This document shows positions 1,973 to 64,000 of a stretch of 64,000 nucleotides of DNA, one piece after another (the first letter of the stretch is position 1; each line of letters begins with the position of its first letter). The translations under genes and the position numbers were made by a program. Below the pieces are notes generated by a model. That model was not told where the DNA came from, made no database searches, and worked only from the letters and a program-made list of their open reading frames with translations. The DNA is from Candidatus Omnitrophota bacterium (GTDB lineage: Bacteria > Omnitrophota > Gorgyraeia > Gygaellales > Profunditerraquicolaceae). The DNA lies in the NCBI GenBank assembly GCA_026387335.1, contig JAPLLX010000004.1, positions 255,045-319,044 on the forward strand. The letters run 5' to 3'.

Positions 1973-2168
1973 AAAATGAAAATCCCCGCGTAAGTGCCGT
2001 TGGAATGAATAGTCTGAACCATTTGCTTTCAGGTGGGCGCCCTATTGGGCTCCCTTGAAATTAGTGTTGGTTCAACAATTATCAAATTTCCAACGAGCAC
2101 TGCAGGGATATCTAAAAGAACGTTTCTTTCCAATTAAAAGTATAGCACATACCGCAGGAAAATCAAGA

Positions 2169-4187: not shown

Positions 4188-4188
4188 T

Positions 4189-5202
4189 TTAGAATTGTTT
4201 CAAAAACCTGAGGTCATTCTCAAAAAATAATCTTATATCGTTGATACCGTATTTAAGCATGGCTATCCTTTCTACCCCCAGGCCAAAGGCAAACCCCGTA
4301 TATTTTTTAGCATCAATCCCCACATGTTTAAAAACATGCGGGTGGATCATGCCTGAACCCAGAATTTCCAGCCAGCCCTTTCTTCCGCAAACAGAACAAC
4401 CCTTACCTTTACAGATTATGCAGGATATATCTACTTCTGCCGAAGGCTCGGTAAAAGGGAAAAAGTGCGGGCGAAAACGCATATTTATGGTATTGCCAAA
4501 AATAGCCTTAGCGAATTTTTCCAAAACGCCCTTGAGGTCAGAAAACTTTATCCCCGCGTCTACCATAAAACCTTCTATCTGATGAAACATAAAAGAGTGC
4601 GAGGCGTCCACCGCGTCAGGCCTGTACACCCGGCCAGGGACCACTATCGCTAACGGCGGTTTACGCTCTTGCATCGCGCGCACCTGCACCGGAGAGGTAT
4701 GGCTGCGCAAAAGTAATTTAGCGTAATCTTTAAGGTAAAAAGTATCAAATGCCTCCCGGGAAGGATGTTCCAGCGGTATATTTAATCCGGTAAAATTATT
4801 ATATTCGGTTTCTATCTCCGGGCCGTCGACAATAGAAAAACCTAGGCGGCTGAATATGGAGCAGATTTCATCGGTTATTTGGGTAACCGGATGCAAGTGG
4901 CCTAAGCCTTGAGCAATGCCGGGCATGCCAATATCAAAAGAAGTGTAGGTTGTATTTTCGGATTGAACAGAAAGAGTCTTTTGCTTATCTTCAACTAGCG
5001 CCAGCAGCCTGTTCTTAAGCGAGTTAACCTGCTGGCCAAACGCGGCCCGTTCATCTTTAGATAAAGACGGTATGGTGCTGGTCAATTCGGCGATTACCCC
5101 TTTTCTTCCTAAATATTTCAGGCGGAATTCTTCCAGTCCTTCAGAGGAATGCACGCCCTGAATATCCAGGTCTATCTGGGTAGAAATAGCGTTAATATCC
5201 AT
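4189..5202 (-). CDS. pheS: phenylalanine--tRNA ligase alpha subunit
   Basis: Class II aaRS motifs (FRPHFFPFTEPS, GSGMIHP), 337 aa, pheS-pheT adjacency. Confidence 0.93.
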   Translation of the reverse strand: MDINAISTQIDLDIQGVHSSEGLEEFRLKYLGRKGVIAELTSTIPSLSKDERAAFGQQVNSLKNRLLALVEDKQKTLSVQSENTTYTSFDIGMPGIAQGLGHLHPVTQITDEICSIFSRLGFSIVDGPEIETEYNNFTGLNIPLEHPSREAFDTFYLKDYAKLLLRSHTSPVQVRAMQERKPPLAIVVPGRVYRPDAVDASHSFMFHQIEGFMVDAGIKFSDLKGVLEKFAKAIFGNTINMRFRPHFFPFTEPSAEVDISCIICKGKGCSVCGRKGWLEILGSGMIHPHVFKHVGIDAKKYTGFAFGLGVERIAMLKYGINDIRLFFENDLRFLKQF

Positions 5203-5553: not shown

Positions 5554-5570
5554 TGTATCTCCTTTTAAAT

Positions 5571-5634
5571 AAATAGGGACAGCGACCATTTTTCTCTTCT
5601 AGGCGACCAAGAAAAATGGTCGCTGTCCCTATTT
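5571..5634. repeat. family A palindromic element, copy 1. Perfect 25-bp inverted repeat AAATAGGGACAGCGACCATTTTTCT ... AGAAAAATGGTCGCTGTCCCTATTT with 14-nt centre, centre in flipped orientation
   Basis: Seen directly; near-identical copies at 26448, 56866, 59328 and 61776. Fills the rpmI-rplT intergenic space. Confidence 0.9.
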
Positions 5635-5635
5635 A

Positions 5636-5836
5636 TTAACCATACGGTAACATCCGCTTAAGGTATTTTGTTTCTTTTTTGTTATCTAAAATATCTCTTT
5701 TTCTCAACTTCCTGATCCTCTTCATCTTCTTGCTGGAAGCAAGATGGCTCTTGCCGCCGCGAGAATATTTGATCTTACCTCTTTTGGTAAGCTTGAATCT
5801 TTTGGAAACACTTTTTTTGGTTTTTAATTTTCCCAT
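5636..5836 (-). CDS. rpmI: 50S ribosomal protein L35
   Basis: MGKLKTKKSVSKRFKLTKRGKIKYSRGGKSHL is typical L35; 66 aa. Confidence 0.9.
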   Translation of the reverse strand: MGKLKTKKSVSKRFKLTKRGKIKYSRGGKSHLASSKKMKRIRKLRKRDILDNKKETKYLKRMLPYG

Positions 5837-23957: not shown

Positions 23958-25796
23958 ATGTGCGGAATAGTCGGATACGTCGGAGAGAGGGAAGCTCAGG
24001 GTATTTTGTTAAGCGGCCTGAAGCGCCTAGAATACCGTGGTTACGACTCAAGCGGTATCGCCGTAATTAACTCTAAGAAAAGCGCCATATCCTTAAGAAA
24101 ATCTCCCGGCAAAATCAGCGCGTTAGAAAGGTTAGTCAAAGCCAGGCCCTTATCCGGCACTGTTGGTATAGCCCATACCCGTTGGGCGACGCACGGCGCT
24201 CCCACCCAGCCTAATGCCCATCCCCACCAGGATTGTCAAGGCGAGATCGCCCTGGTGCATAACGGGATTATTGAGAATTTTGAGATCCTCAAAAACCGCC
24301 TGATTAAAGAAGGCCATACCTTCCGCAGCCAGACAGACACCGAAGTAATCGTCCATTTAATCGAAAAGTTTTATAAGAATATTCCGCTGGAAGAAGCAGT
24401 GCGGCGCAGCCTTAAACTACTGGTGGGTTCTTTCGCCATCGGGGTTATTTCATCAAGAGAACCGGGAAAGTTAGTCGGAGCGCGTTCCGGCAGCCCTTTA
24501 ATTTTAGGTTTAGGTAAGAATGAGAATTTTCTCGCTTCGGATGCGCCCGCGGTTTTAGAGTCAACCAAAGAAATTGTCTTTCTAGATGAAAACGAAGTAG
24601 TGGTTTTAACCAAGGAGGGCTTTCAGGTTACGGATCTGGAAGGCAGGCCAAGCGCTAAAAAATCCGTACGCATTAATTGGGATATTACCCAGGCTCAGAA
24701 AAACGGCTTTGCGCATTTTATGTTGAAAGAAATCAATGAGCAGCCGAAAATCCTGGAAAGCCTGATAAATTCCAGGATCAACAGGGAATCCGGCAAGATA
24801 GATTTTGAAGAACAAAACATCCCTGAAGAAAAGCTTAAAAATATCAAAAATATATTTATCGTCGCCTGCGGCACAGCGTATCACGCCGGTTTGGTGGGAA
24901 AGTATGTTTTAGAATCCCTCTGCGCTATCCCGACACAGATAGACGTTTCCAGCGAATTCCGCTATCGCGAACTTTTAATCGGTCCGGATACCCTGGTTAT
25001 GGCCATAAGTCAGTCCGGAGAGACCGCGGATACCCTGGCCGGGGTAAGGGAGGCCAAAAAACACGGCGCCAGCGTAATCTCTATCTGCAATGTTTTAGGT
25101 TCGACTTTGACCCGCGAATCCGACGGTATAATTTATACGCACGCCGGCCCGGAAATCGGGGTGGCCTCGACCAAGGCTTATACCGCCCAGTTAACCGCCC
25201 TGTATTTATTCGCTTTTTATCTTGCCGGTATCAGAAACGTTCTTCCCTCGGCTAAAATCAGGAAATACCTGGATGACCTGCGCAAAATTCCCCACCAGCA
25301 GGAGTTAATTCTGAAAGAGCAAAATAATATTGCCAGGCTGGCTCGAAAACATTCGCATTTGGGCTCATTTTTGTATTTGGGTAGGAACATTAATTATCCT
25401 TCAGCCCTGGAAGGAGCGCTTAAACTGAAAGAGATCTCTTATATCCCCGCTGAAGGCTATGCCGCCGGAGAGATGAAGCATGGGCCCATTGCCTTAATTG
25501 ATGAGTACCGGGCGGTAGTTTGTATTGCTCCTGCCTCTAAAGTTTATGAAAAGATGGTCTCTAATATCCAGGAGATCCGCTCCCGGCACGGAAAAATTAT
25601 CGCTATTGCCAGCGTAGGGGACAAAGAAATTACGGAGTTAACCAAAGAAGTCATTTATATCCCTAAGTCCGAAGAATTATTCTCTCCTCTTTTAGTGGCT
25701 TTTCCCCTGCAGTTGATAGCTTACCACATTGCCGTAAAACGCGGCTGCGACGTGGACCAGCCGCGCAATTTAGCTAAGTCCGTAACCGTTGAGTAA
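23958..25796 (+). CDS. glmS: glutamine--fructose-6-phosphate aminotransferase
   Basis: N-terminal MCGIVGY, two SIS domains, C-terminal ...NLAKSVTVE; 612 aa. Confidence 0.95.
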   Translation: MCGIVGYVGEREAQGILLSGLKRLEYRGYDSSGIAVINSKKSAISLRKSPGKISALERLVKARPLSGTVGIAHTRWATHGAPTQPNAHPHQDCQGEIALVHNGIIENFEILKNRLIKEGHTFRSQTDTEVIVHLIEKFYKNIPLEEAVRRSLKLLVGSFAIGVISSREPGKLVGARSGSPLILGLGKNENFLASDAPAVLESTKEIVFLDENEVVVLTKEGFQVTDLEGRPSAKKSVRINWDITQAQKNGFAHFMLKEINEQPKILESLINSRINRESGKIDFEEQNIPEEKLKNIKNIFIVACGTAYHAGLVGKYVLESLCAIPTQIDVSSEFRYRELLIGPDTLVMAISQSGETADTLAGVREAKKHGASVISICNVLGSTLTRESDGIIYTHAGPEIGVASTKAYTAQLTALYLFAFYLAGIRNVLPSAKIRKYLDDLRKIPHQQELILKEQNNIARLARKHSHLGSFLYLGRNINYPSALEGALKLKEISYIPAEGYAAGEMKHGPIALIDEYRAVVCIAPASKVYEKMVSNIQEIRSRHGKIIAIASVGDKEITELTKEVIYIPKSEELFSPLLVAFPLQLIAYHIAVKRGCDVDQPRNLAKSVTVE

Positions 25797-26449
25797 TGCT
25801 TTATATAGTCGCTACCCCTATAGGTAATCTAAAGGACATAACCTTTCGCGCTATCGAAGTATTCAAGAGCGTGGATTTGATTGCCTGTGAAGATACCCGG
25901 CATACCAAGATCCTTCTGGATCACTATGGTATTACTAAGCCCACCACGAGTTTCTTTCAGCATAATAGATTTACCAAGGCCGAATATCTGCTCGGGCTTT
26001 TAAAAGAAGGCAAAAACGTGGCCCTTGTTTCGGATGCCGGCACGCCCGGGATACTGGATCCCGGGTATAATCTGATTAATCTGGCTATCAAGAACGCTAT
26101 AGAGCTGACTTTTATTCCGGGGCCCGCAGCTTTTGTCAACGCTTTGGTGCTTTCGGGAAAACCCGCCCACGAATTCTATTTTGCCGGTTTCCTGCCGAAT
26201 AAAAAAATATCCCGCAAGAATAAGCTGAAAGCGTTAAGCGGCTTAAAATGCACGGTTATTTGCTACGAATCGAGCCATCGCATCTTAGCCAGCCTGGAAG
26301 ATTTAGCGGATGTTTTTGGCGATAGGCAAATCGTGGTTGCCCGGGAATTAACCAAGAAATTTGAAGAAGTTATCCGTTCTACCCCCCAGTTGATCCAGGA
26401 GAAGCTGCGTAATTCTAAGCCCCGCGGGGAATTTGTAATTGTAATTTAA
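25796..26449 (+). CDS. rsmI: 16S rRNA (cytidine1402-2'-O)-methyltransferase RsmI (short, ends inside a palindromic element)
   Basis: LYIVATPIGNLKDIT...ACEDTRHT, tetrapyrrole-methylase fold; 217 aa, ends at ...PRGEFVIVI with the stop codon inside the element. Confidence 0.85.
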   Translation: MLYIVATPIGNLKDITFRAIEVFKSVDLIACEDTRHTKILLDHYGITKPTTSFFQHNRFTKAEYLLGLLKEGKNVALVSDAGTPGILDPGYNLINLAIKNAIELTFIPGPAAFVNALVLSGKPAHEFYFAGFLPNKKISRKNKLKALSGLKCTVICYESSHRILASLEDLADVFGDRQIVVARELTKKFEEVIRSTPQLIQEKLRNSKPRGEFVIVI

Positions 26450-26511
26450 ATAGGGACAGCGACCATTTTTCTTGGTCGCCTAGAAGAGAAAAATGGTCGC
26501 TGTCCCTATTT
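26448..26511. repeat. family A palindromic element, copy 2
   Basis: 25-bp perfect inverted repeat identical to the other copies; overlaps the rsmI stop codon. Confidence 0.9.
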
Positions 26512-26519
26512 ATTTAGCC

Positions 26520-37205: not shown

Positions 37206-37708
37206 TCAAGCAATTTGTCCCGGAGGTCGCCTGCCTTAAATGCCAGGGCTGCTGCAGATTTAAGGAAATTGACTCAGTCTGGACGCCTTGCCTGTTAGAA
37301 GAAGAGGTCCAGGATCTACTGGATAAGGATATCCCCGCGGCGTATATAAATATGCAAAGAAAGATCCAGCCGGTCCCCAATCCTAAAGGAGAAGGGTTTC
37401 TCTGCGCTTTTCTAGAAAACCAGAGCAATAAATGCAAGATTTATAACCTGCGGCCTTTCGAGTGCCAGCTTTATCCTTTCCTGATTAACCTGCGGAATAA
37501 AAAAGTAGTGCTGACGGTAGATTTAAATTGTCCCTACATAAAAGAGGCTATTAATAAAAAGGAATTTAAGGAGTACGCGGAGTATTTAGCCGCTTACCTT
37601 AATTCCAAAGAGCAGTTAGAGATGTTGATGGATAACCCCCAGATTATCCAGGCCTATGAGGATGTTACGGATTTGATAGAACTTAAGTTTCCCGATGCGC
37701 CTAAATAA
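37202..37708 (+). CDS. YkgJ-family (UPF0153) Cys-cluster protein, putative Zn/Fe-S binding
   Basis: CLKCQGCCRF plus downstream CxxxxxC motifs; start overlaps the upstream stop by 4 nt; 168 aa. Confidence 0.6.
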   Translation: MIKQFVPEVACLKCQGCCRFKEIDSVWTPCLLEEEVQDLLDKDIPAAYINMQRKIQPVPNPKGEGFLCAFLENQSNKCKIYNLRPFECQLYPFLINLRNKKVVLTVDLNCPYIKEAINKKEFKEYAEYLAAYLNSKEQLEMLMDNPQIIQAYEDVTDLIELKFPDAPK

Positions 37709-38633
37709 ACTCTTCCTGCGCGATAAGAATAAATTTAGTTCTTATTTAAACCTGGAAAGACACGCGTTAGCGGTCTATGCCTTCGCCAATATTTATATCT
37801 GGAGAAGATTCTTTGATATACGCTGGGCGGAAATTGCCGGCAGTCTGTGCGTATTTTTTCAGGATAAGATAGGCTCTTTTTTATATATCCCGCCCTTAGG
37901 AAAAACCCGGGATCCGCAGGTAGTGCAGGAAAATTTCAAAATCCTGGAACGTTTGAATAAGAATCCGGAGTTTGCGCATATAGAAAATATTGAGGAGAAA
38001 GATAAAGGGTTTTACGAAGGCTTAGGGTTAGAATGCGCGTTTAAATCATATGATTATCTTTGCCGCAGAACGGAACTGGCGCAGTTACGCGGGAATAAAT
38101 TTAAATCTAAACGCTCCAGCTGCAATTTTTTTACCAAGCGCTACGATTTCAGTTACGCCAAGCTTACTTTAAAAGAGAGGGGTAGCTGTTTTAAATTATA
38201 TAACCTCTGGGCTCAACAGCGTAACTTGGGTAACCCGGATCATATTTATCAGGGTATGTTATCCGATAGCCGGGTTTCCTTAAAAGAAGCGTTGGTTAAT
38301 TACGCGGATTTAGGCTTTCAGGGTGCGGTAGTAAAAATAGATAAAGAGGTAAAGGGCTTTACTTTCGGGTTTCCTTTAAGCCCGGATACCTTTTGTATAT
38401 TATACGAGATAACCGATTTATCCGTAAAAGGCCTGGCCCAATTTATCTTCCGCTCCTTCGCCCAGGAACTTAAGAGTTACAAATATATTAATATAATGGA
38501 TGACTCTGGGCTAGAAAATTTAAAGAAAGTAAAATTATCGTATCACCCGGAGAAATTGGTTCCGGCGTATATTGCTAGAAGAAAACCAACTTCAGGGACG
38601 GTTCTCAACTCAAAGCAAAAGTGTCCCCATTAA
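37695..38633 (+). CDS. DUF2156 (MprF C-terminal-like, aminoacyl-tRNA-dependent transferase fold) stand-alone protein. The last 13 codons and the stop are supplied by a family B palindromic element.
   Basis: C-terminal NLKKVKLSYHPEKLVPAYIA resembles the MprF/LPG-synthase C-terminal motif GLxxFKxKFxPxWxPxY; 312 aa; overlaps the upstream gene by 14 nt. Confidence 0.6.
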   Translation: MRLNKLFLRDKNKFSSYLNLERHALAVYAFANIYIWRRFFDIRWAEIAGSLCVFFQDKIGSFLYIPPLGKTRDPQVVQENFKILERLNKNPEFAHIENIEEKDKGFYEGLGLECAFKSYDYLCRRTELAQLRGNKFKSKRSSCNFFTKRYDFSYAKLTLKERGSCFKLYNLWAQQRNLGNPDHIYQGMLSDSRVSLKEALVNYADLGFQGAVVKIDKEVKGFTFGFPLSPDTFCILYEITDLSVKGLAQFIFRSFAQELKSYKYINIMDDSGLENLKKVKLSYHPEKLVPAYIARRKPTSGTVLNSKQKCPH

Positions 38634-38668
38634 GGGGACACTTTAAGATTGGCTCGAGAACCGTCCCT
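38594..38668. repeat. family B palindromic element, copy 1. Nested inverted repeats: outer AGGGACGGTTCTC...GAGAACCGTCCCT, inner AAAGTGTCCCC-loop-GGGGACACTTT.
   Basis: Seen directly; the copy at 59969-60043 is its near-exact reverse complement. Confidence 0.9.
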
Positions 38669-38676
38669 AATCTGAT

Positions 38677-39522
38677 ATGAATATAGATGAAATAGAATTT
38701 GTAATTTTTGACACTGAAACCACCGGCCTTGATCCGTCTTCCGGGGATAGGATAGTGGAGTTGGCGGCTTTAAAATTTAAAGGCCTGGAAAAAATATCTG
38801 AGTTTCAGGCGTTGGTCAACCCGGGTAAGCCTGTATCCGAGGCAGCCTTTGCGGTCAATAAAATCAGCGCCGAGATGCTCAAAGACGCGCCCCAGCCCGA
38901 AACAGTAATCCCTAAATTTCTAGATTTTATTCAGGGTTCTTGCGTTTGTTCTTACAATGCCTGTTTTGACCTGGAATTTTTAAATAATGAATTAAAAGTT
39001 TTAAACCTGCCGGCGTTAAAAGATATCCTGATAATTGACGCGCTGAAGATGGCCAAGCGCGTTCTTCCGGGCTTAGAGCGTTACGCGCTCTGGTTTGTCG
39101 CGGATACCCTGGGTATAAAAATAAAGCAACAGCATCGGGCGTTCTCCGACGTAGAACTGACCTTAGCTGTCTTTAATAAATTAAAGGATATCCTTAAGAC
39201 CAAGGGCATAACAGATTTCAATAAATACCTTGGGTTATTTAGCGTTAATCCCGCGTTGCTGGAAAATATTAATAACCAAAAGATCGCCCAGATCCAGGAA
39301 GCTTTAAACTTAAGGGCGCAGATTAAAATTGAATATATTTCTGTTTCCAGCGCCCAGGTTACCCGGCGCGAGGTGGTCCCGAAAGAAATTAAACGCGAGA
39401 ACGGCAAAGACTATTTAGTGGGTTACTGCTGCCTGAAGCGCCAGGAGCGCTCGTTTCGGGTTGATAATATATTGCATATAGAGATCGTTAATGAAAACAC
39501 TGGAAATCAAGCTTCCTTTTAA
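38677..39522 (+). CDS. DnaQ-like DEDD 3'-5' exonuclease fused to a C-terminal WYL-like domain
   Basis: Exo I FVIFDTETTGL, Exo III HRAFSDVELT; C-terminal ~90 aa contain ERSFRVDNILHIEI, resembling the WYL motif. Confidence 0.7.
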   Translation: MNIDEIEFVIFDTETTGLDPSSGDRIVELAALKFKGLEKISEFQALVNPGKPVSEAAFAVNKISAEMLKDAPQPETVIPKFLDFIQGSCVCSYNACFDLEFLNNELKVLNLPALKDILIIDALKMAKRVLPGLERYALWFVADTLGIKIKQQHRAFSDVELTLAVFNKLKDILKTKGITDFNKYLGLFSVNPALLENINNQKIAQIQEALNLRAQIKIEYISVSSAQVTRREVVPKEIKRENGKDYLVGYCCLKRQERSFRVDNILHIEIVNENTGNQASF

Positions 39523-55022: not shown

Positions 55023-56537
55023 ATGGTGAAGATTAAACGGGCGTTGATCAGCGTATCGGATAAAACAGGAATATTAGATTTCGCGAAAGAGTTAAATAAA
55101 TTCGGCGTGGAAATCCTCTCTACGGGTGGCACGGCAAAATTATTGCGCGAAAATAATATTCCGGTAAAAGAAGTATCCGAATATACGGGATTTCCGGAGA
55201 TGCTTGACGGCCGGGTTAAAACGCTGCATCCCAAAATACACGGCGGGCTTCTGGCTTTGCGGGATAACCCCGAGCATATGGCTACGCTCAAAGATCATGG
55301 TATCGGTTTAATCGATATGGTAGCGGTAAATCTTTATCCGTTTGAAAAAACCACCCAAAAACCCGGGGTAGCGATAGAAGAGGTGATTGAAAATATTGAT
55401 ATCGGCGGGCCGTCCATGCTGCGCTCCGCCGCTAAAAATCACCGCTCAGTAGCGGTTATCTGTAATCCGGGAAGGTACCCCCAGGTCATCGAAGAATTAA
55501 AGAAAAATAACGGCTGCCTGCCGGATAGCCTTTTACGCGATTTAGGCATTGAAGTTTTTAGCCGCACATCCCAATACGATGGAGCGATATTTGCGTATCT
55601 TAACAAATGGAATAACGGCTCTAAAACAGCAGCAATAGGCATTTTCCCCGATACGCTTACTTTATCTTTTGAAAAAATTCAGGATTTACGTTACGGCGAG
55701 AATCCCCATCAAAAAGCAGCCTTCTACAAAGAAAAAGGGAAGTCGGTAGGGTTGATAAACCTTAAGCAATTACAGGGTAAAGAGTTATCTTTTAATAATA
55801 TATTGGATTTAAATGCCGCTTTGGAATTAGTGCGGGAATTCAGCCAACCAGCTGCGGTAATCGTCAAACATAATAATCCCTGCGGAGTGGCTGAAGATAA
55901 AACTCTGGAAAAAGCATTTTTATACGCCTGGAAGTGTGACCCGCTCTCCGCTTTCGGCGGAATTGTCGCTTTAAACCGTAAGCTGGATTTAAAAACCGCT
56001 AAAGTGATAGCTAAAAGTGGATTCTTAGAATGTATTATCGCTCCCGGGTTTGAACAGGAAACGCTAGAGTTATTTAAAGAAAAAAAGAATTTACGCATTT
56101 TGGAATTTTATGGCTTAGAGCCGATAAACGAGCCGGAGTTTAAACGCGTAAGCGGCGGGTTGTTACTCCAGGATAAAGATTTGGCGACCCTGGATTTAAA
56201 TAACCTGAAAGTGGTTACTAAAAGAAAGCCGACCAAGCAAGAGATGACTAGTTTGATTTTTGGTTGGAAAGTAGCCAAGCATGTAAAATCCAACGCCATT
56301 ATTTTAACCAAGGGGACTAGGGCCGTCGGCATCGGCGCGGGGCAGATGTCCCGGGTGGATTCAGTTATGATTGCTAAGAAAAAATCCGGCAAGTTAAGCG
56401 CCAATTCCTGTTTAGCTTCCGACGCCTTCTTCCCTAAGCCGGACGCTATTTCCTGGGCCCATAAAGCCGGCGCTAAAGCGATAATCCAGCCCGGCGGCTC
56501 AATCGCCGACCAGAATCCAGGCCTGCGACAAATATAA
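55023..56537 (+). CDS. purH: bifunctional AICAR formyltransferase / IMP cyclohydrolase
   Basis: MGS-like N-terminal domain (ALISVSDKTGI) plus AICARFT domain; 504 aa. Confidence 0.92.
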   Translation: MVKIKRALISVSDKTGILDFAKELNKFGVEILSTGGTAKLLRENNIPVKEVSEYTGFPEMLDGRVKTLHPKIHGGLLALRDNPEHMATLKDHGIGLIDMVAVNLYPFEKTTQKPGVAIEEVIENIDIGGPSMLRSAAKNHRSVAVICNPGRYPQVIEELKKNNGCLPDSLLRDLGIEVFSRTSQYDGAIFAYLNKWNNGSKTAAIGIFPDTLTLSFEKIQDLRYGENPHQKAAFYKEKGKSVGLINLKQLQGKELSFNNILDLNAALELVREFSQPAAVIVKHNNPCGVAEDKTLEKAFLYAWKCDPLSAFGGIVALNRKLDLKTAKVIAKSGFLECIIAPGFEQETLELFKEKKNLRILEFYGLEPINEPEFKRVSGGLLLQDKDLATLDLNNLKVVTKRKPTKQEMTSLIFGWKVAKHVKSNAIILTKGTRAVGIGAGQMSRVDSVMIAKKKSGKLSANSCLASDAFFPKPDAISWAHKAGAKAIIQPGGSIADQNPGLRQI

Positions 56538-56584
56538 AATCGCCATGGTTACTACCGGCATAAGGCACTTCAGGCACTAATGAA

Positions 56585-57958
56585 ATGTCCTACCCAGAAG
56601 CTCTCCGATACCTGGAATCTTTTGTCAACTACGAAAAGTTTTCCAGCTACCCTTATCAAGAAGCCTTAAACTTAAAACGCGTTCAGGGTTTTTTAAATTT
56701 AGTCAAGAATCCCGAGCGTTCCTTAAGATTTATCCACGTAGCCGGAACAAAAGGCAAAGGCTCAACCTGCGCTTTTATTACCTATATATTAAGGGAAGCC
56801 GGGTTTAAAACCGGCTTATATACTTCTCCGCACCTAATTGATTTTAGAGAACGCATCAGGATTTTAAATAGGGACAGCGACCATTTTTCTTGGTCGCATA
56901 GACAGAAAAATGGTCGCTGTCCCTATTTAAGTGACTTTGAAGGAATGATCTCTAAGCGCAAACTGGCCAGCTTAGTGGATAGATTAAAACCCGCGCTAGA
57001 AAAATATAACCGCGTTTCAATTTACGGCGCGCTTTCCTTTTTTGAAATATGCACAGTTTTAGCTTTTATGTATTTCAAAGACGAAGGGGTAGACTTAGCG
57101 GTTTTAGAGACCGGATTAGGCGGGAGGCTGGACGCCACTAATATTGTTGAGCCTAAAGTGTGCGTTCTTACCCCCATAAGTTATGAGCATATGGATAAAT
57201 TAGGTCATACCTTAAAGAAGATAGCGGCGGAGAAAGCCGGGATTATTAAAAGAAATTCAATTGTTATTTCCGCGCCGCAAGTGAAAGAAGCAGGAAGAGT
57301 TATCAGTGATAAATGTAAGCAAGAAAATGCCAAACTATTCCTGGTAGGAAAAGATATAAAATATAGCGGCTCGGAGAATAAATTCAGAGTCACTACCCCT
57401 TACGCAGACTACAAAGATTTAAAGATAAGATTATGCGGCCGGCATCAAGTGCTGAACGCCGCAATGGCCCTGGCCGCAGTTAGCGCTCTCGGTAAGTGTA
57501 ATATCAAAGTCCGGATTGATTCTATCAAGAAAGGGCTCTATAATACTTTATGGCCGGGTAGATGCGAGGTCGTGGCTAAAAATCCTCTCATAATCCTGGA
57601 TGGCGCGCAAAACGCCGCTTCGGCAAAGGTTTTAAAAAAAGCGGTTCAAGAAAGGTTTCGTTACCGCAAGCTTATCCTTATACTCGGAGTTTCTAACGAT
57701 AAAGATATAAAAGGGATCGCGGATGAGCTTTATGCTTTAGCCGGTACAGTTATATTAACCAAAGCGAATAATTCGCGCGCAACTGATCCGAGAATCCTCG
57801 CCGGATATTTTAGAAAAAAAGATAAATATATCACTAATGGCCTAGCCGAAGCTAAAATATTGGCCCAGAAGCTGGCTAAAAAGGAAGACCTGATATTAGT
57901 TACCGGCTCTCTTTTTGTGGTAGGCGAATTCAAAAATGATAAATCACGACTTAACTGA
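56585..57958 (+). CDS. folC: folylpolyglutamate synthase / dihydrofolate synthase carrying an in-frame 21-codon palindromic-element insertion
   Basis: Mur-ligase P-loop HVAGTKGKGST, SPHLIDFRERIRI, LETGLGGRLDATNIV; the insertion [21 protein letters not shown] is encoded by a family A element. Confidence 0.85.
   Translation: MSYPEALRYLESFVNYEKFSSYPYQEALNLKRVQGFLNLVKNPERSLRFIHVAGTKGKGSTCAFITYILREAGFKTGLYTSPHLIDFRERIRILNRDSDHFSWSHRQKNGRCPYLSDFEGMISKRKLASLVDRLKPALEKYNRVSIYGALSFFEICTVLAFMYFKDEGVDLAVLETGLGGRLDATNIVEPKVCVLTPISYEHMDKLGHTLKKIAAEKAGIIKRNSIVISAPQVKEAGRVISDKCKQENAKLFLVGKDIKYSGSENKFRVTTPYADYKDLKIRLCGRHQVLNAAMALAAVSALGKCNIKVRIDSIKKGLYNTLWPGRCEVVAKNPLIILDGAQNAASAKVLKKAVQERFRYRKLILILGVSNDKDIKGIADELYALAGTVILTKANNSRATDPRILAGYFRKKDKYITNGLAEAKILAQKLAKKEDLILVTGSLFVVGEFKNDKSRLN
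56866..56928. repeat. family A palindromic element, copy 3, inside the folC coding sequence (63 bp, in frame)
   Basis: Perfect 25-bp inverted repeat identical to the intergenic copies. Confidence 0.9.
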
Positions 57959-59318
57959 TACAATCGCGGCGATTGCCACCCCTGTCGGTGAGGGCGGGAT
58001 AGGGATAGTGCGTATTAGCGGTAAGCTGGCGTTAGCTATCGCGGATAAGATATTTATTTCTCCCGCCGGAAAATTACCATCAACGCTTAAAACTTATACT
58101 ACGCATTATGGGACAATCGTCAAGGGCAAAAAGGTGATTGATGAAGTCATCCTTACGATTATGCGCTCCCCCAAGTCTTACACAAGAGAAGATATAGTTG
58201 AAATAAATTGCCACGGCGGAATAGTCGCTTTGCGGGGAGTGCTGGACCTGGTTTTAGCCAGCGGCGCGCGTATGGCTAGGCCGGGAGAATTTACCAAACG
58301 CGCGTTTCTAAACGGCAGGATTGATCTTACTCAGGCCGAGGCGGTCTTAGATATAATCCGGGCTAAAACCGATTCCGCTTTAAAGACGGGAATTGAGCAG
58401 CTAAAAGGCTCGCTCTCTAAGCAGATAAATAAATACAGGGAACTTTTATTAAACATACTCGCGCAATTAGAGGCAGGTATTGATTTTCCGGAAGAGTTAG
58501 TTTCTACGGAGGATTTAAAAACCATATCCAGAAAACTAGATGAGGTTCATAATGGCTTGGAGGGGTTGATTAAAGATTCCCGCCTGGCCAGGATATTACG
58601 CGAAGGAATACATGTGGTTATCTGCGGAAAACCCAACGTCGGAAAATCATCCCTTTTAAACGCGCTGCTTAAAGAGGAGCGCTCAATAGTCACTCCTATT
58701 GCCGGGACTACCCGCGACACGATAGAAGAGGTAATAGATATTCAAGGAATACCGGTTAGGATAGTGGATACTGCCGGGATATTGGAGCCGCGGGATTTAG
58801 TGGAAAAAGAAGCGGTCAAGCGCTCAAAGGAACAGATTGCCGCTGCGGATTTAATAATTATTTTATTTGACGCTAGCAAGAAGCTCTCCCCGGAAGACCT
58901 CTTTCTTATCCGGAAATTAAAGAAAAAAAAGGTTATCGCTTTAATAAATAAGTCCGACCTTAAGCAGAAAATTGAAAAAGGAAGGTTAGAAAAGATATTT
59001 AAGAGCGTAGTAGATATATCGGCTAAAAAACTGATCAATATAGATCTTTTGGAAAAGGCTATCGCGGATTTAGTTTACGGCGGCTCAGTTGCCCAGGCTG
59101 AATCATTACTGGTGGCTAATTTAAGGCACAGAAATATGATTCAAAAGGCGAAGATTATTATTGCGCAAGCCCGCGAATCGTTAGATAATAGCTTGCCAGC
59201 GGAATTTATTGCTCAGGATTTAAAAGAGGCGTTAGGGCATCTGGATGAAGTATCCGGCAGGAAGTTTTCCGAGGATTTATTGGATAAGATATTCTCGGAA
59301 TTTTGTATCGGTAAATAA
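57936..59318 (+). CDS. mnmE: tRNA modification GTPase MnmE/TrmE
   Basis: N-terminal TIAAIATP, G-domain GKPNVGKSSLLNAL, C-terminal CIGK; 460 aa. Confidence 0.92.
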   Translation: MINHDLTDTIAAIATPVGEGGIGIVRISGKLALAIADKIFISPAGKLPSTLKTYTTHYGTIVKGKKVIDEVILTIMRSPKSYTREDIVEINCHGGIVALRGVLDLVLASGARMARPGEFTKRAFLNGRIDLTQAEAVLDIIRAKTDSALKTGIEQLKGSLSKQINKYRELLLNILAQLEAGIDFPEELVSTEDLKTISRKLDEVHNGLEGLIKDSRLARILREGIHVVICGKPNVGKSSLLNALLKEERSIVTPIAGTTRDTIEEVIDIQGIPVRIVDTAGILEPRDLVEKEAVKRSKEQIAAADLIIILFDASKKLSPEDLFLIRKLKKKKVIALINKSDLKQKIEKGRLEKIFKSVVDISAKKLINIDLLEKAIADLVYGGSVAQAESLLVANLRHRNMIQKAKIIIAQARESLDNSLPAEFIAQDLKEALGHLDEVSGRKFSEDLLDKIFSEFCIGK

Positions 59319-59327
59319 ATAGGATAT

Positions 59328-59390
59328 AAATAGGGACAGCGACCATTTTTCTTGGTCGCCTAGACAGAAAAACGGTCGCTGTCCCTATTT
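59328..59390. repeat. family A palindromic element, copy 4 (mnmE-folE intergenic)
   Basis: Inverted repeat with one arm mismatch (ATGG/ACGG). Confidence 0.9.
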
Positions 59391-59404
59391 AATCAGGGAG
59401 AATT

Positions 59405-59962
59405 ATGAATAAGAAAAAGATTGAGAGAGCAGTGTACGATATATTGGAAGCGATAGGCGAGAACCCGAAGAAAAAGGACCTTCTGGAAACTCCTAAGCGC
59501 GTAGCTGAAATGTACGAAGAAATATTTTCCGGTATCAAGCAGGACCCCGAGAAAGAGTTAGAAGTTATTTTAGACCAGAAACATCATGAAATCATCCTAC
59601 TTAAAGGAATACCTCTCTACTCGATCTGCGAACATCATTTGCTTCCTTTTGTGGGTAAGGCCAGCATAGCTTATATCCCTAAGAGTGGCCGGGTTACGGG
59701 TTTGAGTAAATTAGCCCGGGTGGTAGATATTTTAGCCCACCGGCCGCAAGTACAGGAGCGCCTGACTACCCAGATAGCCGAGATTATTATGTCTAAATTA
59801 AGGCCCTTAGGGGTAATGGTGGTTATTGAGGCTGAACATATGTGCATGTCTTTGCGCGGAGTAAGGAAACCCGGGACGCTTACCATTACCTCAGCCGTGC
59901 GCGGTATATTTAAAGAGAATGAAAAGACGCGCTCAGAGGCCTTAGCTTTGATTAAATCTTAG
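59405..59962 (+). CDS. folE: GTP cyclohydrolase I
   Basis: [10 protein letters not shown] zinc-binding motif; 185 aa. Confidence 0.92.
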
Positions 59963-59968
59963 AATCTT

Positions 59969-60043
59969 AGGGACGGTTCTCAAGCCAATCTCAAAGTGTC
60001 CCCTAACAGGGGACACTTTTGCTTTGAGTTGAGAACCGTCCCT
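59969..60043. repeat. family B palindromic element, copy 2 (reverse orientation relative to copy 1)
   Basis: AGGGACGGTTCTCAAGCCAATCTCAAAGTGTCCCCTAACAGGGGACACTTTTGCTTTGAGTTGAGAACCGTCCCT; preceded by the tandem direct 8-mer AATCTTAGAATCTTAG. Confidence 0.9.
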
Positions 60044-60061
60044 GACTGATGGAGGAATATT

Positions 60062-60400
60062 ATGACGCATAAAAGCCAAGGTAAGTCATCACTAGGGATG
60101 GAAGCCAATATTGCCGCGCTCTTAAGCTACCTTTTGGGTTTTGTCTCCGGGATAATCTTTTACGCTTTAGAGAAAGAAAATAAGTTTGTGCGTTTCCACG
60201 CGATGCAATCGATCGTGGTTTTCGCGTTTTTATTTGTTTTAAACATGGTCGTAAAACTCTTACCTTTAATAGGTTGGACCATCTCCACTCTTTTGGGCAT
60301 AATAGGCATAGTCATCTGGGTTCTCCTTATGGTTAAAGCCTACAACGGAGAATATTTCAAACTGCCGGTTGCCGGAGAGATTGCCGAGAAAAACTCCTAA
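60062..60400 (+). CDS. DUF4870-family small membrane protein
   Basis: ANIAALLSYLLGFVSGIIFYALEKENKFVRFHAMQSIVVF pattern; 112 aa. Confidence 0.55.
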   Translation: MTHKSQGKSSLGMEANIAALLSYLLGFVSGIIFYALEKENKFVRFHAMQSIVVFAFLFVLNMVVKLLPLIGWTISTLLGIIGIVIWVLLMVKAYNGEYFKLPVAGEIAEKNS

Positions 60401-60518
60401 AGAAAGCGCTTTCTAAAACACTGGATATTCCCTTGAAACCCGTAGGAATCAAGGGCATACTAGTAATGCATAGTCAAACAGGCCATTATGCCTGCGCCAG
60501 ACAGGAGAGCGTTAACCG

Positions 60519-60860
60519 ATGCCCGGTAATTATCCTCAAGAAAAAAGGAAGCTAGTCCGTTTTCTCATCACTATACCCTTAAAACACATTAAGATCAGCA
60601 TGAGAAGTTTTAACTCCTCCTGCACTCATGACATAAGCGCGCAAGGCGTAGGCCTGATCACTCCCGAGGAGCTTCCCGTAAATACCCCTTTAATTTTATG
60701 CCTTAAGATTCCGGATAACGGAGAAGAGATATCTTTAGAGGCAGAGGTAGTCTGGTCAACGCGAATGTCTTCTGAGCAATACCGCTCCGGCCTTAAGCTT
60801 AAAAATAATCCGATCAAACCCATCCCCCTCGTATTAAGGACAATTTATTCCAAATTATAA
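60519..60860 (+). CDS. PilZ domain protein (c-di-GMP receptor-like)
   Basis: RKLVRF...DISAQGVGL PilZ signature; 113 aa. Confidence 0.6.
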   Translation: MPGNYPQEKRKLVRFLITIPLKHIKISMRSFNSSCTHDISAQGVGLITPEELPVNTPLILCLKIPDNGEEISLEAEVVWSTRMSSEQYRSGLKLKNNPIKPIPLVLRTIYSKL

Positions 60861-60935
60861 TCTTGATTGACATACCCCGCTGGAAGTAGTATCATATCTT
60901 TAATCGTCTAACTGACCCAATAATAAAAAACTAAG

Positions 60936-61751
60936 ATGACCAAAATTAAAACTCAAGTTTCCATAATCCTCGCGGTTATATTCCTGTCGGGTTGCGCCTG
61001 CTATAGTTTTAAAAAAGGCGAGTCTCCCTACAATAACGGTTTTGTAGCCTCAAGATACGGCAGAGTACTTCCTGAATATACCATCGGTAAAGACAATTCT
61101 GTCCCGGATGAAGCGGTAGCTAAGGAACGCTTCAAAAGGCGTAGGATTGAAGTCGAGGCTTATTATAAAAAAATGGGTTATATTAAAAACCGCTTTAGAC
61201 AGATGTTTATTGACCCGCCTTTTTTTATGATTCAGGCTGTATCCGGTGTGTTCTATATGCCATCAGTAGCTATCAATGATTACAAATATAATCACGATGC
61301 CGCATATAAAGAGAAGATAGACAAACAGGAAGATGCTGAGTATAGGGCTGAAAAAGAGCGGCTCAGGGTTTTAAAGGAGAAACTAAACTCTTACATTCAG
61401 AATGATTTACAGAAAGAAACGCCCGCAGTCGCGCCAACCGCAGAACCGGTTAAAAAAGAATCTTTGCCACCGGAAAAGGCCAAGCCAGTTGTTAGTGAAG
61501 AAGCTCTTGCGCCTAAGGCCGTAGAAGCTCCTGCCAAGGAAGTGGCTGCGAAGATTCCTAACGCGGTTATCGTTGCTAAACCCCTGAAAGGGGTTTCGCC
61601 TTTAACTGTGCAATTTTACGGTTCTAAATCTTCTTCTCCCAACGGCAGGATAATCTCTTATCTTTGGGATTTTGGCGACGGAGATACCTCTACAAAGAAG
61701 AATCCTATGAATACCTACTGGAGCACAACCTACGGCTCGCGTAAACATTGA
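60936..61751 (+). CDS. lipoprotein with Pro/Ala/Lys-rich linker and a C-terminally truncated PKD domain
   Basis: Lipobox LSGCA; PKD-like LTVQFYGSKSSSPNGRIISYLWDFGDGDTSTKKNPMNTY then stops mid-domain, 25 nt before a family A element; 271 aa. Confidence 0.5.
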   Translation: MTKIKTQVSIILAVIFLSGCACYSFKKGESPYNNGFVASRYGRVLPEYTIGKDNSVPDEAVAKERFKRRRIEVEAYYKKMGYIKNRFRQMFIDPPFFMIQAVSGVFYMPSVAINDYKYNHDAAYKEKIDKQEDAEYRAEKERLRVLKEKLNSYIQNDLQKETPAVAPTAEPVKKESLPPEKAKPVVSEEALAPKAVEAPAKEVAAKIPNAVIVAKPLKGVSPLTVQFYGSKSSSPNGRIISYLWDFGDGDTSTKKNPMNTYWSTTYGSRKH

Positions 61752-61775
61752 AGTACTTTCAAAATAAAACTCTTT

Positions 61776-61836
61776 AAATAGGGACAGCGACCGTTTTTTG
61801 TCTATGCGACCAAAAAAACGGTCGCTGTCCCTATTT
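61776..61836. repeat. family A palindromic element, copy 5 (variant arms ...CCGTTTTTT)
   Basis: Seen directly. Confidence 0.85.
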
Positions 61837-62114
61837 AATTCGATTTTTGAGTTTTAGCTGAAATAAAAGATATTGTAAATATTAGGGATACGTCAAAACC
61901 GCCTCTTACTTTCAAAACCCCGAAAATAGCTATTTTTAGCAAAATAAACCCTTCAAATTTATCAAATCCCAAAAATCTCCGCTTCCGACGGAAAAATCAA
62001 AGATTTTACTTGACAAAATGTATAATATGCTTTATCATTTGTTATTATATTATAGTACTTACTATAATACACTATATACTGCTATTTGTTCTGCATTTAA
62101 AAAAAGGAGCACTA

Positions 62115-62345
62115 ATGAACAAAACCTTAATCTCACCTATTGAAATCAGTAAAAAATACAACATCTCCTATCAAACAATAAATTATTACACTAATCTGGG
62201 TTTATTAAAAGTGCGCCGGCGCGAAGGAAATAACCGGTTGTATAACAACAGGGAAGTGCGCTCGGGGTTAAGCAGGATAACGAAATTAAAGAGCCAGGGT
62301 TATTCCTTGCATCTTATCCGCGGGATTGTCATGAAAGAACAATGA
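62115..62345 (+). CDS. MerR-like HTH transcriptional regulator (short)
   Basis: ISPIEISKKYNISYQTINYYTNLGLL resembles the MerR N-terminal HTH. Start placed at the internal ATG (MNKTLIS); the ORF-track start at 62010 adds an implausible hydrophobic leader. Confidence 0.5.
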   Translation: MNKTLISPIEISKKYNISYQTINYYTNLGLLKVRRREGNNRLYNNREVRSGLSRITKLKSQGYSLHLIRGIVMKEQ

Positions 62346-63166
62346 GCTATTACTCGGTATTAGGCCTGAATAAAGAACCTTTTTCCACCAGCCCCGACCC
62401 GGAGTTTTTCTACGAGTCCAACGAGCATAAAGCCTGTCTCCTGCGGGTATTGGTAGAAATACGGCTGCGCCGGGGCTTAAGCGTTATTTTAGGAGATGTA
62501 GGCGTTGGTAAGACCACACTTTCACGTAAGCTTTTTCAGATGCTTAAAGAAAGACCGGATATACTTTTTTATATGGTGTTGGACCCGACTACCCCCAACG
62601 AAGAACTATTTCTGGAGTCATTAGTGCGGACGTTTAATATCCAGGATGAGCTCAAAACTTCACCCAGCATACTGGATTATAAAGAGGCGATCAAAAAATT
62701 TCTTTTTCAAAAAGGCGTAGAGGAAAATAAAACAATAGTTTTTGTTATAGACGAAGCCCAAAAACTTAATCCGGCTGCTTTGGAGATGCTACGCGTTTTA
62801 TTAAATTATGAGACTAATGAATATAAATTATTGCAGCTGGTTTTATTCTCGCAGATGGAGCTTTTGCCCCGGATAAAAGAGATTAAAAACTTTTTTGACC
62901 GGATAGTGCTTAAATATGTTATTAACCCTCTGGATGAAAAAGAGACCAGGGACATGATTAATTTTCGGTTGCAGCAGTCGGGCTTTAACTCAGAGCTGAA
63001 ACTCTTTACCGATGAGGCAATTAGCGAGATCCATCATTATAGCCAGGGTTACCCGCGCAGGATCAACCTGATTTGCCATAACGCGCTAAGGAATCTGATC
63101 ACCTCTAACCGGACAGTGATCGACGCTACCTTAGTGCGGGACCTGATAGCCAGGAGCGCAGTATAA
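62342..63166 (+). CDS. ExeA/GspA/MshM-type AAA+ ATPase of type II secretion / type IV pilus systems
   Basis: Walker A LGDVGVGKTTL, Walker B IVFVIDEAQ; 274 aa. Confidence 0.7.
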   Translation: MSYYSVLGLNKEPFSTSPDPEFFYESNEHKACLLRVLVEIRLRRGLSVILGDVGVGKTTLSRKLFQMLKERPDILFYMVLDPTTPNEELFLESLVRTFNIQDELKTSPSILDYKEAIKKFLFQKGVEENKTIVFVIDEAQKLNPAALEMLRVLLNYETNEYKLLQLVLFSQMELLPRIKEIKNFFDRIVLKYVINPLDEKETRDMINFRLQQSGFNSELKLFTDEAISEIHHYSQGYPRRINLICHNALRNLITSNRTVIDATLVRDLIARSAV

Positions 63167-63168
63167 CA

Positions 63169-63825
63169 ATGGATAAAGGGACCTCCGACGAAAGACTGCT
63201 TAAATTGATTGAAGGTGGCGCCGCGGGCGAAGCTAAACGCAAACAAAATATCGGCATAAGCCCTAAAAAATCATTCTCCGAGCTTATGCAGACGTCTAAA
63301 TTTAATCTAAGTTTGAAGGCGATTAAGGAGTTTAAACCCAATATCGTCGTCCTGAATAAAGGGTTAATGGTGTTGGCGGCAATAGTCACGGTCATACTGA
63401 TCTATAGCCTTTTTAGCGGGCCGGTCTTTTCAGCCTCTAATGCAGCATATTTTACTTCTGCCGATGTCTCTGCCGTAGCCAAACAATTATCCGCGAAAGA
63501 AAATCCGGGTTTGCTCCGCAAAAATATATTAAGCCAGGACATTAAGCGGAATGTTTTCCTGGCTCCGGGAACCAAGCTCACCTCGCTTACAGAAGCCGCC
63601 TCCGCCAATGTAACCGAGGTCGCTAAAGACCTAAAATTAGTGGGGATTATCTGGTCAGCTAACCCGGAGGTAATGATCGAATACGGAAAAGATTCCCGGA
63701 CCTATACCTTAAAGAAAGGGGATTCTTTTAACGGAGATCAATTTAAGGTTAAAGATGTTGCGCGTAACTTTGCGGTCTTAGAAGTTTCTATTGACGGTAG
63801 AGTAAACGAGTATGTGTTAAGATGA
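63169..63825 (+). CDS. bitopic membrane protein, possible GspB/PilP-like partner of the ExeA ATPase
   Basis: Single TM helix LMVLAAIVTVILIYSLF, C-terminal beta-rich domain; 218 aa; sits between the ATPase and the secretin. Confidence 0.4.
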   Translation: MDKGTSDERLLKLIEGGAAGEAKRKQNIGISPKKSFSELMQTSKFNLSLKAIKEFKPNIVVLNKGLMVLAAIVTVILIYSLFSGPVFSASNAAYFTSADVSAVAKQLSAKENPGLLRKNILSQDIKRNVFLAPGTKLTSLTEAASANVTEVAKDLKLVGIIWSANPEVMIEYGKDSRTYTLKKGDSFNGDQFKVKDVARNFAVLEVSIDGRVNEYVLR

Positions 63826-64000
63826 GCCGGCTGCGTTCTTTCTTTATATTTACGGTCATCTGTTTATTGAGTTTTAACTTCCTGTTGGCCCAGGACGCTA
63901 AAGAAGCTAAAATGAACGAACTACTGGAAAAACCTCTGCCAACAGAAGAAAAAAAGATTTCGCTGGATTTAAAAGGCATAGACATCAATGAGCTCTTTAA
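63822..64000 (+). CDS. secretin (PilQ/GspD-like) N-terminus, partial
   Basis: Own translation: MSRLRSFFIFTVICLLSFNFLLAQ (signal peptide) ... KISLDLKGIDINELF (secretin N-terminal motif); runs off the window. Confidence 0.45.
   Translation, partial: MSRLRSFFIFTVICLLSFNFLLAQDAKEAKMNELLEKPLPTEEKKISLDLKGIDINELF

Follow-up and report, generated by a model that had tools for sequence, protein, structure and literature searches.

Two copies of family B in the window

The window analyzed here is a stretch of 64,000 nucleotides (nt) from a Candidatus Omnitrophota bacterium (contig JAPLLX010000004.1, positions 255,045 to 319,044), and it contains two copies of a palindromic repeat, designated family B, each located at a junction between two genes. 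Copy 1 (38593..38669, + strand) reads CA-GGGACGGTTCTC...GAGAACCGTCCC-TA from its left half (LE) to its right half (RE). It overlaps the last 40 nt of a DUF2156/LPG_synthase_C gene (37695..38633, +; 312 amino acids, aa), and the ATG of the downstream RNase_T + WYL gene (38677..39522, +) is found 7 nt past the element. Copy 2 (59968..60044) reads LE to RE on the - strand and is located between folE, encoding GTP cyclohydrolase I (59405..59962, +), and a DUF4870 gene (60062..60400, +), for which GGAGG and ATG are present at most 18 nt past the element. As proposed in an earlier sequence-only reading of this DNA, copy 2 follows folE and is preceded by a tandem 8-mer, AATCTTAG, present twice at 59955..59970 (+; units 59955-59962 and 59963-59970). 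The first unit contains the folE stop TAG (59960-59962), the second runs into the end of copy 2, and the distance from the folE stop to the start of the element is 7 nt.

A repeat search aligned 38592-38670 with 59967-60045 as reverse complements over 79 nt at 94%. The two near-exact inverted elements described by the sequence-only reading are therefore present, with boundaries refined from 75 to 77 nt; the conserved unit derived from the copy census below is YA-GGGAC...GTCCC-TR, corresponding in the window to 38593-38669 and 59968-60044. The proposed outer arms and inner hairpin were likewise recovered. In the whole 64 kb, the outer 13-mer AGGGACGGTTCTC has exactly four matches, one at each arm position, compared with about one match in shuffled sequence even at two mismatches, and the inner 11-mer AAAGTGTCCCC also has exactly four, all at inner-arm positions. 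Within copy 1, the LE (38593..38628, +) consists of the outer core GGGACGGTTCTC, the spacer AACTCAAAGC and the inner core-like arm AAAAGTGTCCCC; the central loop ATTAA (38629..38633, +) holds the TAA (38631-38633) that is the present DUF2156 stop; and the RE (38634..38669, +) reads GGGGACACTTT..CGAGAACCGTCCC-TA.

Each copy is predicted to fold as RNA into a single long hairpin of -46 to -54 kcal/mol (z -9.7 to -12.5) and as DNA at -27 to -30 kcal/mol (z about -10). An Rfam 15 scan of the window yielded only tRNAs and 6S RNA, with nothing at either element. Neither copy was called in an intrinsic terminator scan, and the downstream flank is A-rich with no T/U tract.

Copy census and consensus

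Loci obtained through our genome, metagenome and protein-anchored look-ups are denoted by L and a number. A search for both outer arms in species-representative genomes yielded at least 118 loci, of which approximately 20 among those listed had the architecture seen in the window, all in Omnitrophota and a few metagenome-assembled genomes (MAGs) labelled Planctomycetales. A metagenome scan for the window architecture yielded at least 120 loci. Together, the two scans contained at least 126 further distinct copies in Omnitrophota-type contigs, showing family B to be a real dispersed family. No copy was found in viral contigs.

The distance from GGGAC to GTCCC had a mode of 73 nt (126 copies among the matches listed). 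Alignment of first 20 and then 126 copies fitted the same consensus, which in the common orientation reads YA-GGGACGGTTCTC-AACTCAAAGC-[A(A/G)AA(G/C)TGTCCCC]-loop of 4-6 nt-[GGGGACA(C/G)TTT]-variable 9-11 nt-TTGAGAACCGTCCC-TR, with the right end GAGAACCGTCCC-TR. Degenerate versions of the outer 12-mer make up the inner arms, most often CAGAACTGTCCC and GGGACAGTTTTC. The nested palindrome appearance of family B results from the presence in each element of four core-like units of alternating orientation (+,-,+,-), and each half is itself an imperfect hairpin in which the core and the core-like arm form about 8.9 of 12 Watson-Crick pairs.

C-terminal tail of the DUF2156 protein

The DUF2156 ORF (open reading frame) ends in ...AYIARRKPT-SGTVLNSKQKCPH-stop, and its last 13 codons (38592-38630, SGTVLNSKQKCPH) and stop are contributed by copy 1, as the sequence-only reading had claimed. 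The protein has 1338 database homologues, the best being Candidatus Omnitrophota proteins of 298-299 aa with 95% query coverage. Most of the 28 orthologues aligned stop at ...AYIVRRKxx, 11-14 residues (about 13) short of the window protein, and the tails of the few long-tailed orthologues are unrelated among themselves.

The gene order tRNA_bind, CxxCxxCC, DUF2156, RNase_T-WYL, HypF_C, HypC, HypD is kept in relatives. In the closest syntenic relative (L121, 77% nucleotide identity) DUF2156 ends RRKLA-stop and is followed by an unrelated 178-nt spacer without the element, and L119 and L122 carry other hairpins at this junction, built on GGGGACAC. A family B copy is present at the same junction in L134 (66% identity), in the opposite internal orientation, and this flipped copy yields a different tail, QGRFSRQS-stop, in another frame. 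Judged by sequence comparison, the window tail is repeat-derived and is not conserved as protein, because orthologues end earlier, L121 lacks the element, and the L134 tail differs in both sequence and frame.

Y1 transposase locus

A search for an associated transposase, as the sequence-only reading had suggested, identified in related genomes a Y1 gene bracketed by family B halves and resembling REP-associated tyrosine transposases (RAYTs; REP, repetitive extragenic palindromic). Clustering of ORFs over the at least 118 genome loci, as listed, yielded one informative small cluster, a 249-260-aa Y1_Tnp protein from L054 (Mesobacillus persicus), L061 and L062, with each gene flanked by the 12-mer; the remaining clusters were generic only (ABC ATPases, response regulators and similar). 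These Bacillota Y1 proteins scored 69-78 bits on NCBIfam REP_Tyr_transpos (NF047646; cut-off 80). A profile of the clustered proteins recovered six Y1 ORFs in the metagenome loci listed, and in L208 and L223 a 158-aa Y1 gene is located precisely between a family B left half and right half. The 158-aa protein has 1791 homologues, of which all organism-named ones are from Candidatus Omnitrophota, and plasmids held only 34 distant homologues. Look-up of four homologues yielded ten loci from at least four Omnitrophota assemblies, for a total of 12 Omnitrophota loci with the Y1 gene flanked by family B units (L208, L223, L243-L252).

The ten looked-up loci share the order divergent mnmG/gidA, LE (YAGGGACGGTTCTCAACTCAAGGCAAAAGTGTCCCC), about 75 nt including AGGAGGTG, Y1 gene and RE (GGGGACACTTT...TTGAGAACCGTCCCTR), after which a phosphomutase-like gene and/or a ribonucleotide reductase gene is found. 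In most loci the RE directly follows the Y1 stop TAG; in L245 about 21 nt separate it from the stop. In nearly all loci the LE finishes with GTGTCCCC and the RE starts with GGGGACAC, the 35-nt ends being mutually inverted; in L250-L252 the LE reads GTGTCCCT in place of GTGTCCCC. The Y1 gene is single-copy, at one syntenic locus per genome, with proteins differing by 25-30% across at least four assemblies. Gene locus and dispersed copies occur together in MAG UBA6233 (L246 with L103 and L117), on contig Ga0265297_10000299 (L243 with L171) and in L208, where they are 6 kb apart.

Sequence comparison matched the LE of copy 1 to the region upstream of the Omnitrophota Y1 gene and its RE to the sequence directly abutting the Y1 stop codon, and the position of the copy 1 loop is occupied in the gene-carrying form by the approximately 550-nt Y1 gene region. 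The Omnitrophota protein contains the motifs PNHVHLV, HLWQDRF and NYIEANP and scored 78.4 bits on NF047646 (cut-off 80) and 24.7 bits on the IS200 model NF033573 (cut-off 55). Its sole Protein Data Bank relative is E. coli TnpA-REP (4ER8), and it shares 42% identity with the Bacillota proteins over their catalytic domain (E = 1e-45).

Two other Y1-related proteins were observed. In L185 (5110-6111, +) and L178 (3489-4550, -), a protein of 330-350 aa with a degenerate Y1 domain, in which ESH replaces HUH and F replaces the catalytic Y, continues into a long, charged/coiled C-terminal region that includes a hydrophobic segment, and is encoded about 450 nt from a family B copy; this may be an inactivated, repurposed Y1 relative. 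The Omnitrophota-type contig L150 encodes a second Y1 type (ORF 3735-4460, 242 aa, motifs MPNHYHLVV and YVERNP), flanked by its own unrelated 26-nt inverted repeats (3653-3678 and 4477-4502, CTTGTAGACAGTCTACGTAACCCTAT).

Genomic context of family B copies

Among the copies listed with two called neighbours, 96 of 102 are located between co-directional genes. The upstream stop codon is inside the element in 39 of 101 copies listed and at most 20 nt away in 47 more (median 3 nt), and the median distance from the element to the next start codon is 9.5 nt. In many copies the terminal TAG of the element is the stop codon, and the stop of the Y1 gene likewise abuts its own RE. This clustering between operon genes could arise because AT-rich sequence near stop codons is preferred as a target, because copies elsewhere are removed by purifying selection, or for both reasons. 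Furthermore, LE-to-RE orientation follows the direction of the genes at 40:17 among the unambiguous copies listed (p = 0.003), a bias that fits strand-specific, replication-linked targeting.

No target-site duplication above permutation expectation was detected among the copies listed, for lengths of 2-8 nt at four boundary offsets. Empty orthologous sites were found in comparisons of L184 with L156, L196 and L154, of L143 with L123 and L186, and of L146 with L157, and these empty sites are stop/start junctions of 0-5 nt. A locus syntenic with window positions 55659-64000 (L140, 76% identity) also contains family B after folE, in flipped orientation, with a single, unduplicated AATCTTAG unit and the TAG of the element as the folE stop. 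Flipped copies thus occur at both window junctions, after DUF2156 in L134 and after folE in L140.

Origin of family B and alternative explanations

The most probable explanation, to which we assign a probability of roughly 0.8, is that family B is a non-autonomous palindromic repeat similar to a REPIN (REP doublet forming a hairpin), composed of the LE and RE of the Omnitrophota RAYT-like Y1 (HUH) locus joined back to back without the gene. The gene region would have been cut to a loop of 4-6 nt, because the halves are identical to the Y1 locus ends. This explanation draws on the identity of halves and ends, the single-copy syntenic gene, the absence of target duplication, the filled and empty sites, and the replacement of the DUF2156 stop, and is further supported by the genomes that have both gene locus and dispersed copies and by the 12-mer around the Bacillota homologues.

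Several observations weigh against it. No Y1 ORF is present in the 64-kb window, and the enzyme was seen only in related genomes. Family B lacks the classical REP head GT[AG]G, the ends being N-Y-A-G with G at position -3 in 20 of the 126 copies listed. Single halves of the window subfamily fold weakly (-4 to -6 kcal/mol, z about -1 to -1.5), and in the census alignment the inner arms lack compensatory covariation, with arm2 and arm3 variants combining almost independently. The invariance of the outer core in the 126-copy census was imposed by the search pattern. Finally, flipped copies at one junction could be old insertions followed by inversion rather than repeated insertion.

Among the alternatives, family B could be a host regulatory hairpin (an intercistronic mRNA stabilizer, a modulator of translation or operon polarity, or an atypical terminator) kept by selection and not a mobile parasite. 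The stability of the hairpin, the location of 96 of 102 copies listed between co-directional genes at short median distances from stop (3 nt) and start (9.5 nt), the 40:17 orientation bias, and the occupation of both window junctions in relatives at 66-76% nucleotide identity would all be consistent with such a role. We nevertheless consider it unlikely, given that neither copy has a T-tract, a terminator call or an Rfam family, the inner stem lacks covariation, and both orientations occur, with flips at one site. In close relatives the element is missing or unrelated inserts are found, translation reads through copies in differing frames, and each half is identical to an end of the transposase gene locus. 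Individual copies may have been exapted.

A classical miniature inverted-repeat transposable element (MITE), that is, a deletion derivative of an insertion sequence (IS) of DDE type moved through its terminal inverted repeats (TIRs), would likewise have perfect outer inverted repeats (here 13-15 nt), a short uniform size (modal 73+4 nt in the copies listed) and a terminal TA readable as a TA duplication. The YA/TR termini are, however, often unequal (CA...TA) and fit neither a TA duplication nor an exact repeat, direct duplications of 2-8 nt did not exceed chance at any offset, the only gene found between the ends is a Y1 HUH transposase, and no recurrent DDE gene emerged from the ORF clusters of the at least 118 loci listed; a MITE origin is accordingly very improbable. 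For the DUF2156 tail in particular, a genuine conserved C-terminal extension of 13 aa, with the second copy a chance likeness, would accord with the annotation of the 312-aa ORF, tail included, in public record P0001. This is scarcely credible when orthologues cover 95% of the query and most end 11-14 residues sooner, the remaining long tails are unrelated in sequence, and the DNA encoding the tail is found again on the opposite strand behind folE and at more than 120 further places.

DNA uptake sequences, iterons and partition sites, parS/CIRCE-like operators, Tn3-/IS6-type ends and restriction sites (GGGAC being that of BsmFI) were also considered and dropped, as the 12-mer flanks a Y1 gene in every locus examined. 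An early impression of compensatory inner-stem changes was removed by counting arm2/arm3 variants.

If family B does derive from the ends of the Y1 locus, the single-copy Y1 enzyme would act in trans on single-stranded LE and RE by recognizing the 12-mer, by analogy with IS200/IS605 TnpA and E. coli TnpA-REP, which act on their own end hairpins (PMC6006769). By the same analogy, the enzyme would cut and rejoin the ends, moving or copying the doublet, with reinsertion free of target duplication. Surviving copies build up in the tiny stop-to-start spacers inside operons, where the TAG at the element end or the internal TAA often becomes the stop codon, as happened with copy 1 in the DUF2156 gene; that replacement was probably neutral, and such changes to gene ends are a recognized by-product of repeats of this type. 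REPs of E. coli stabilize upstream mRNA and can stall terminating ribosomes. The transcribed family B hairpin, at a predicted -46 to -54 kcal/mol, may similarly alter the stability of upstream mRNA or the translation of neighbouring genes.

Relationship to known repeat systems

The closest known kinds are the TIRtron/TIRYT and REPIN-RAYT systems. TIRtrons are RAYT-like genes flanked by long TIRs sharing GGGGWSAS and encode TIRYTs, or TIR-associated tyrosine transposases; their TIR families are "moderately abundant" and occur as dimers or clusters (Di Nocera et al. 2013, PMC3733652). TIRYTs are equivalent to TnpAY1 subclass 2.1 and to group 1 of the Bertels RAYT classification, and no REP-like repeats were reported near subclass 2.1 genes (Quentin et al. 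2018, PMC6006769). Similarly, only about 12 occurrences were found of 16-mers flanking group 1 RAYTs, and REPIN association was described for groups 2 and 3 only (Bertels et al. 2017, PMC5581495).

As in TIRtrons, the RAYT-like Y1 gene of family B is flanked by long inverted repeats and not by GTAG REPs, the gene-proximal GGGGACAC of LE and RE fits the GGGGWSAS consensus, and dispersed dimers are present (two in the window and at least 126 elsewhere), with nested or tandem clusters in other phyla. The Y1 motifs NHVH, WQDRF/FQDRF and YIEANP/YIHQNP resemble those of subclass 2.1. The Omnitrophota Y1 protein differs in being 158 aa long without a C-terminal helix-turn-helix (HTH) tail, whereas subclass 2.1 proteins are about 238 aa with HTH; the Bacillota homologues are 249-276 aa and have a C-terminal tail. 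A further difference is that the TIRtrons described do not include any from Omnitrophota; TIRYTs are named in only two papers of the searchable literature.

Family B resembles the REPIN-RAYT systems of Pseudomonas and Enterobacteria (Bertels and Rainey 2011; 4ER8) in combining two inverted imperfect-palindromic units into one long hairpin, in having a Y1 gene that is single-copy, syntenic, vertically inherited and flanked by its own repeat units, and in the mostly extragenic location of its repeats near the 3' ends of genes. The frequent use of the element-end TAG as a stop is shared with GTAG REPs, whose termini often supply TAG stops and which can sit inside ORFs (PMC3733652). In contrast to REPINs, family B has no GT[AG]G head, its conserved determinant being the 12-mer, and the Omnitrophota Y1 protein falls slightly under the NCBIfam RAYT cut-off (78.4 vs 80).

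With IS200/IS605 elements and their gene-less derivatives, family B shares predicted Y1 HUH chemistry, the lack of target duplication and putatively structured ends, together with an orientation bias compatible with single-strand (lagging-strand) targeting. It differs in that its Y1 gene is single-copy at one conserved locus without tnpB, matches the IS200 model weakly (24.7 bits vs 55) and has mutually inverted ends. Rickettsia palindromic elements and intragenic REPs are likewise palindromic repeats read as protein with the host gene intact, and the parallels here are copy 1 as the DUF2156 tail and a family A copy (described below) in frame in folC. The Rickettsia elements belong to other sequence families, and we know of no transposase associated with them.

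Occurrence of the 12-mer in other phyla

Either GGGACGGTTCTC or a variant with one mismatch flanks each of the seven Bacillota homologues examined (L054, L061, L062, L138, L253 from Syntrophocurvum, L255/L256 from Acetivibrio clariflavus, and L258 from Neobacillus cucumis). In these genomes the 12-mer occupies the loop of a short stem whose sequence varies by genome (A-core-A' ... A-core'-A'), and nested or tandem layers are frequent. The setting thus varies from the loop of variable stems in Bacillota to a stem in Omnitrophota and mirrored arrays of 20-nt period in Actinomycetota. By record title, exact two-arm matches span nine phyla (Bacillota, Actinomycetota, Bacteroidota, Chloroflexota, Planctomycetota, Omnitrophota, Nitrospirota, Myxococcota and Atribacterota), a list in which isolate genomes back Bacillota only and which mis-binned contigs could inflate. 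A search of the accessible literature for GGGACGGTTCTC brought up only an unrelated C. elegans primer.

MAGs of Micropruina (Actinomycetota) and one of Lachnospiraceae contain mirrored tandem arrays of GGGGACGGTTCTC (L026 1-230, L109 360-600, L071 600-810), in which four or five units of 20-nt period face their complements. In A. clariflavus (L255, L256), one 253-aa RAYT-like protein is encoded on a total of 9 contigs and in no fewer than two genomic contexts, each context adjoining a DDE transposase gene; in this species the RAYT-like gene may behave more as a mobile element than as a fixed gene.

Bertels group 1/TnpAY1 2.1/TIRYT is the largest and least understood RAYT group. It is conceivable, at slightly less than even odds in our estimate, that GGGACGGTTCTC is the cognate recognition core of this group and defines a near pan-bacterial REPIN-like superfamily in about nine phyla by label, with the Omnitrophota enzyme anciently fixed beside mnmG and its repeats occupying operon stop/start junctions. 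Such a superfamily may have escaped earlier surveys, since the 12-mer alone stays constant and its structural setting shifts.

Family A and further features of the window

A second repeat, family A, is present in five copies (5568-5637, 26446-26514, 56864-56931, 59326-59393 and 61774-61840) with the form TAAATAGGGACAGCGACCATTTTTCT...AGAAAAATGGTCGCTGTCCCTATTTA and an extra internal TGGTCGC. The two families may share a mobilisation mechanism, as hinted at in the sequence-only reading; they have only the terminal TAGGGAC in common, and no Y1 gene or other enzyme was found beside family A ends. All three family A copies of the L140-syntenic stretch are missing from L140, and L182 and L242 have shortened versions. 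The copy at 26446 contains, within its arm, the TAA stop of ORF 25796-26449. The copy at 56864-56930 is in frame within a folC-like Mur-ligase gene (ORF 56585-57958), adding 22 codons after ...SPHLIDFRERIRI, and L140 has 10 unrelated codons at this insertion point.

Other GGGAC-type hairpins are found at the same junctions in relatives (L119 3905-3965 and 3990-4025; L122 2130-2165; the end of the PKD-domain gene in L140). Two GGGAC-type hairpins start with GTAGGGGACAC and GTAGGGACAG, the classical REP head GTAG fused to a GGGAC stem, and in L140 the stop of the PKD-domain gene is immediately followed by GGGGACGGTTCT, at a position taken by family A in the window. The window also encodes a 6S RNA (Rfam RF00013, 64 bits) at 1979-2111 (-), beside ORF 2169-4187, and seven tRNA genes.

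Implications

No REP/REPIN system or RAYT link for Omnitrophota was found in the searchable literature, and the present analysis adds the identification of an enzyme locus and a 12-mer determinant common to distant phyla. An anonymous palindrome is thereby turned into a defined system consisting of a repeat, its probable enzyme and the conserved locus of that enzyme. The DUF2156 gene illustrates how a repeat can rewrite the C-terminus of a protein, here twice independently within one gene family, and in annotation, gene ends overlapping such repeats should be counted as element-derived. Furthermore, the shared 12-mer offers a simple, testable DNA determinant for a RAYT group deemed essentially repeat-less by two surveys, and this determinant would help test what these domesticated transposases do.

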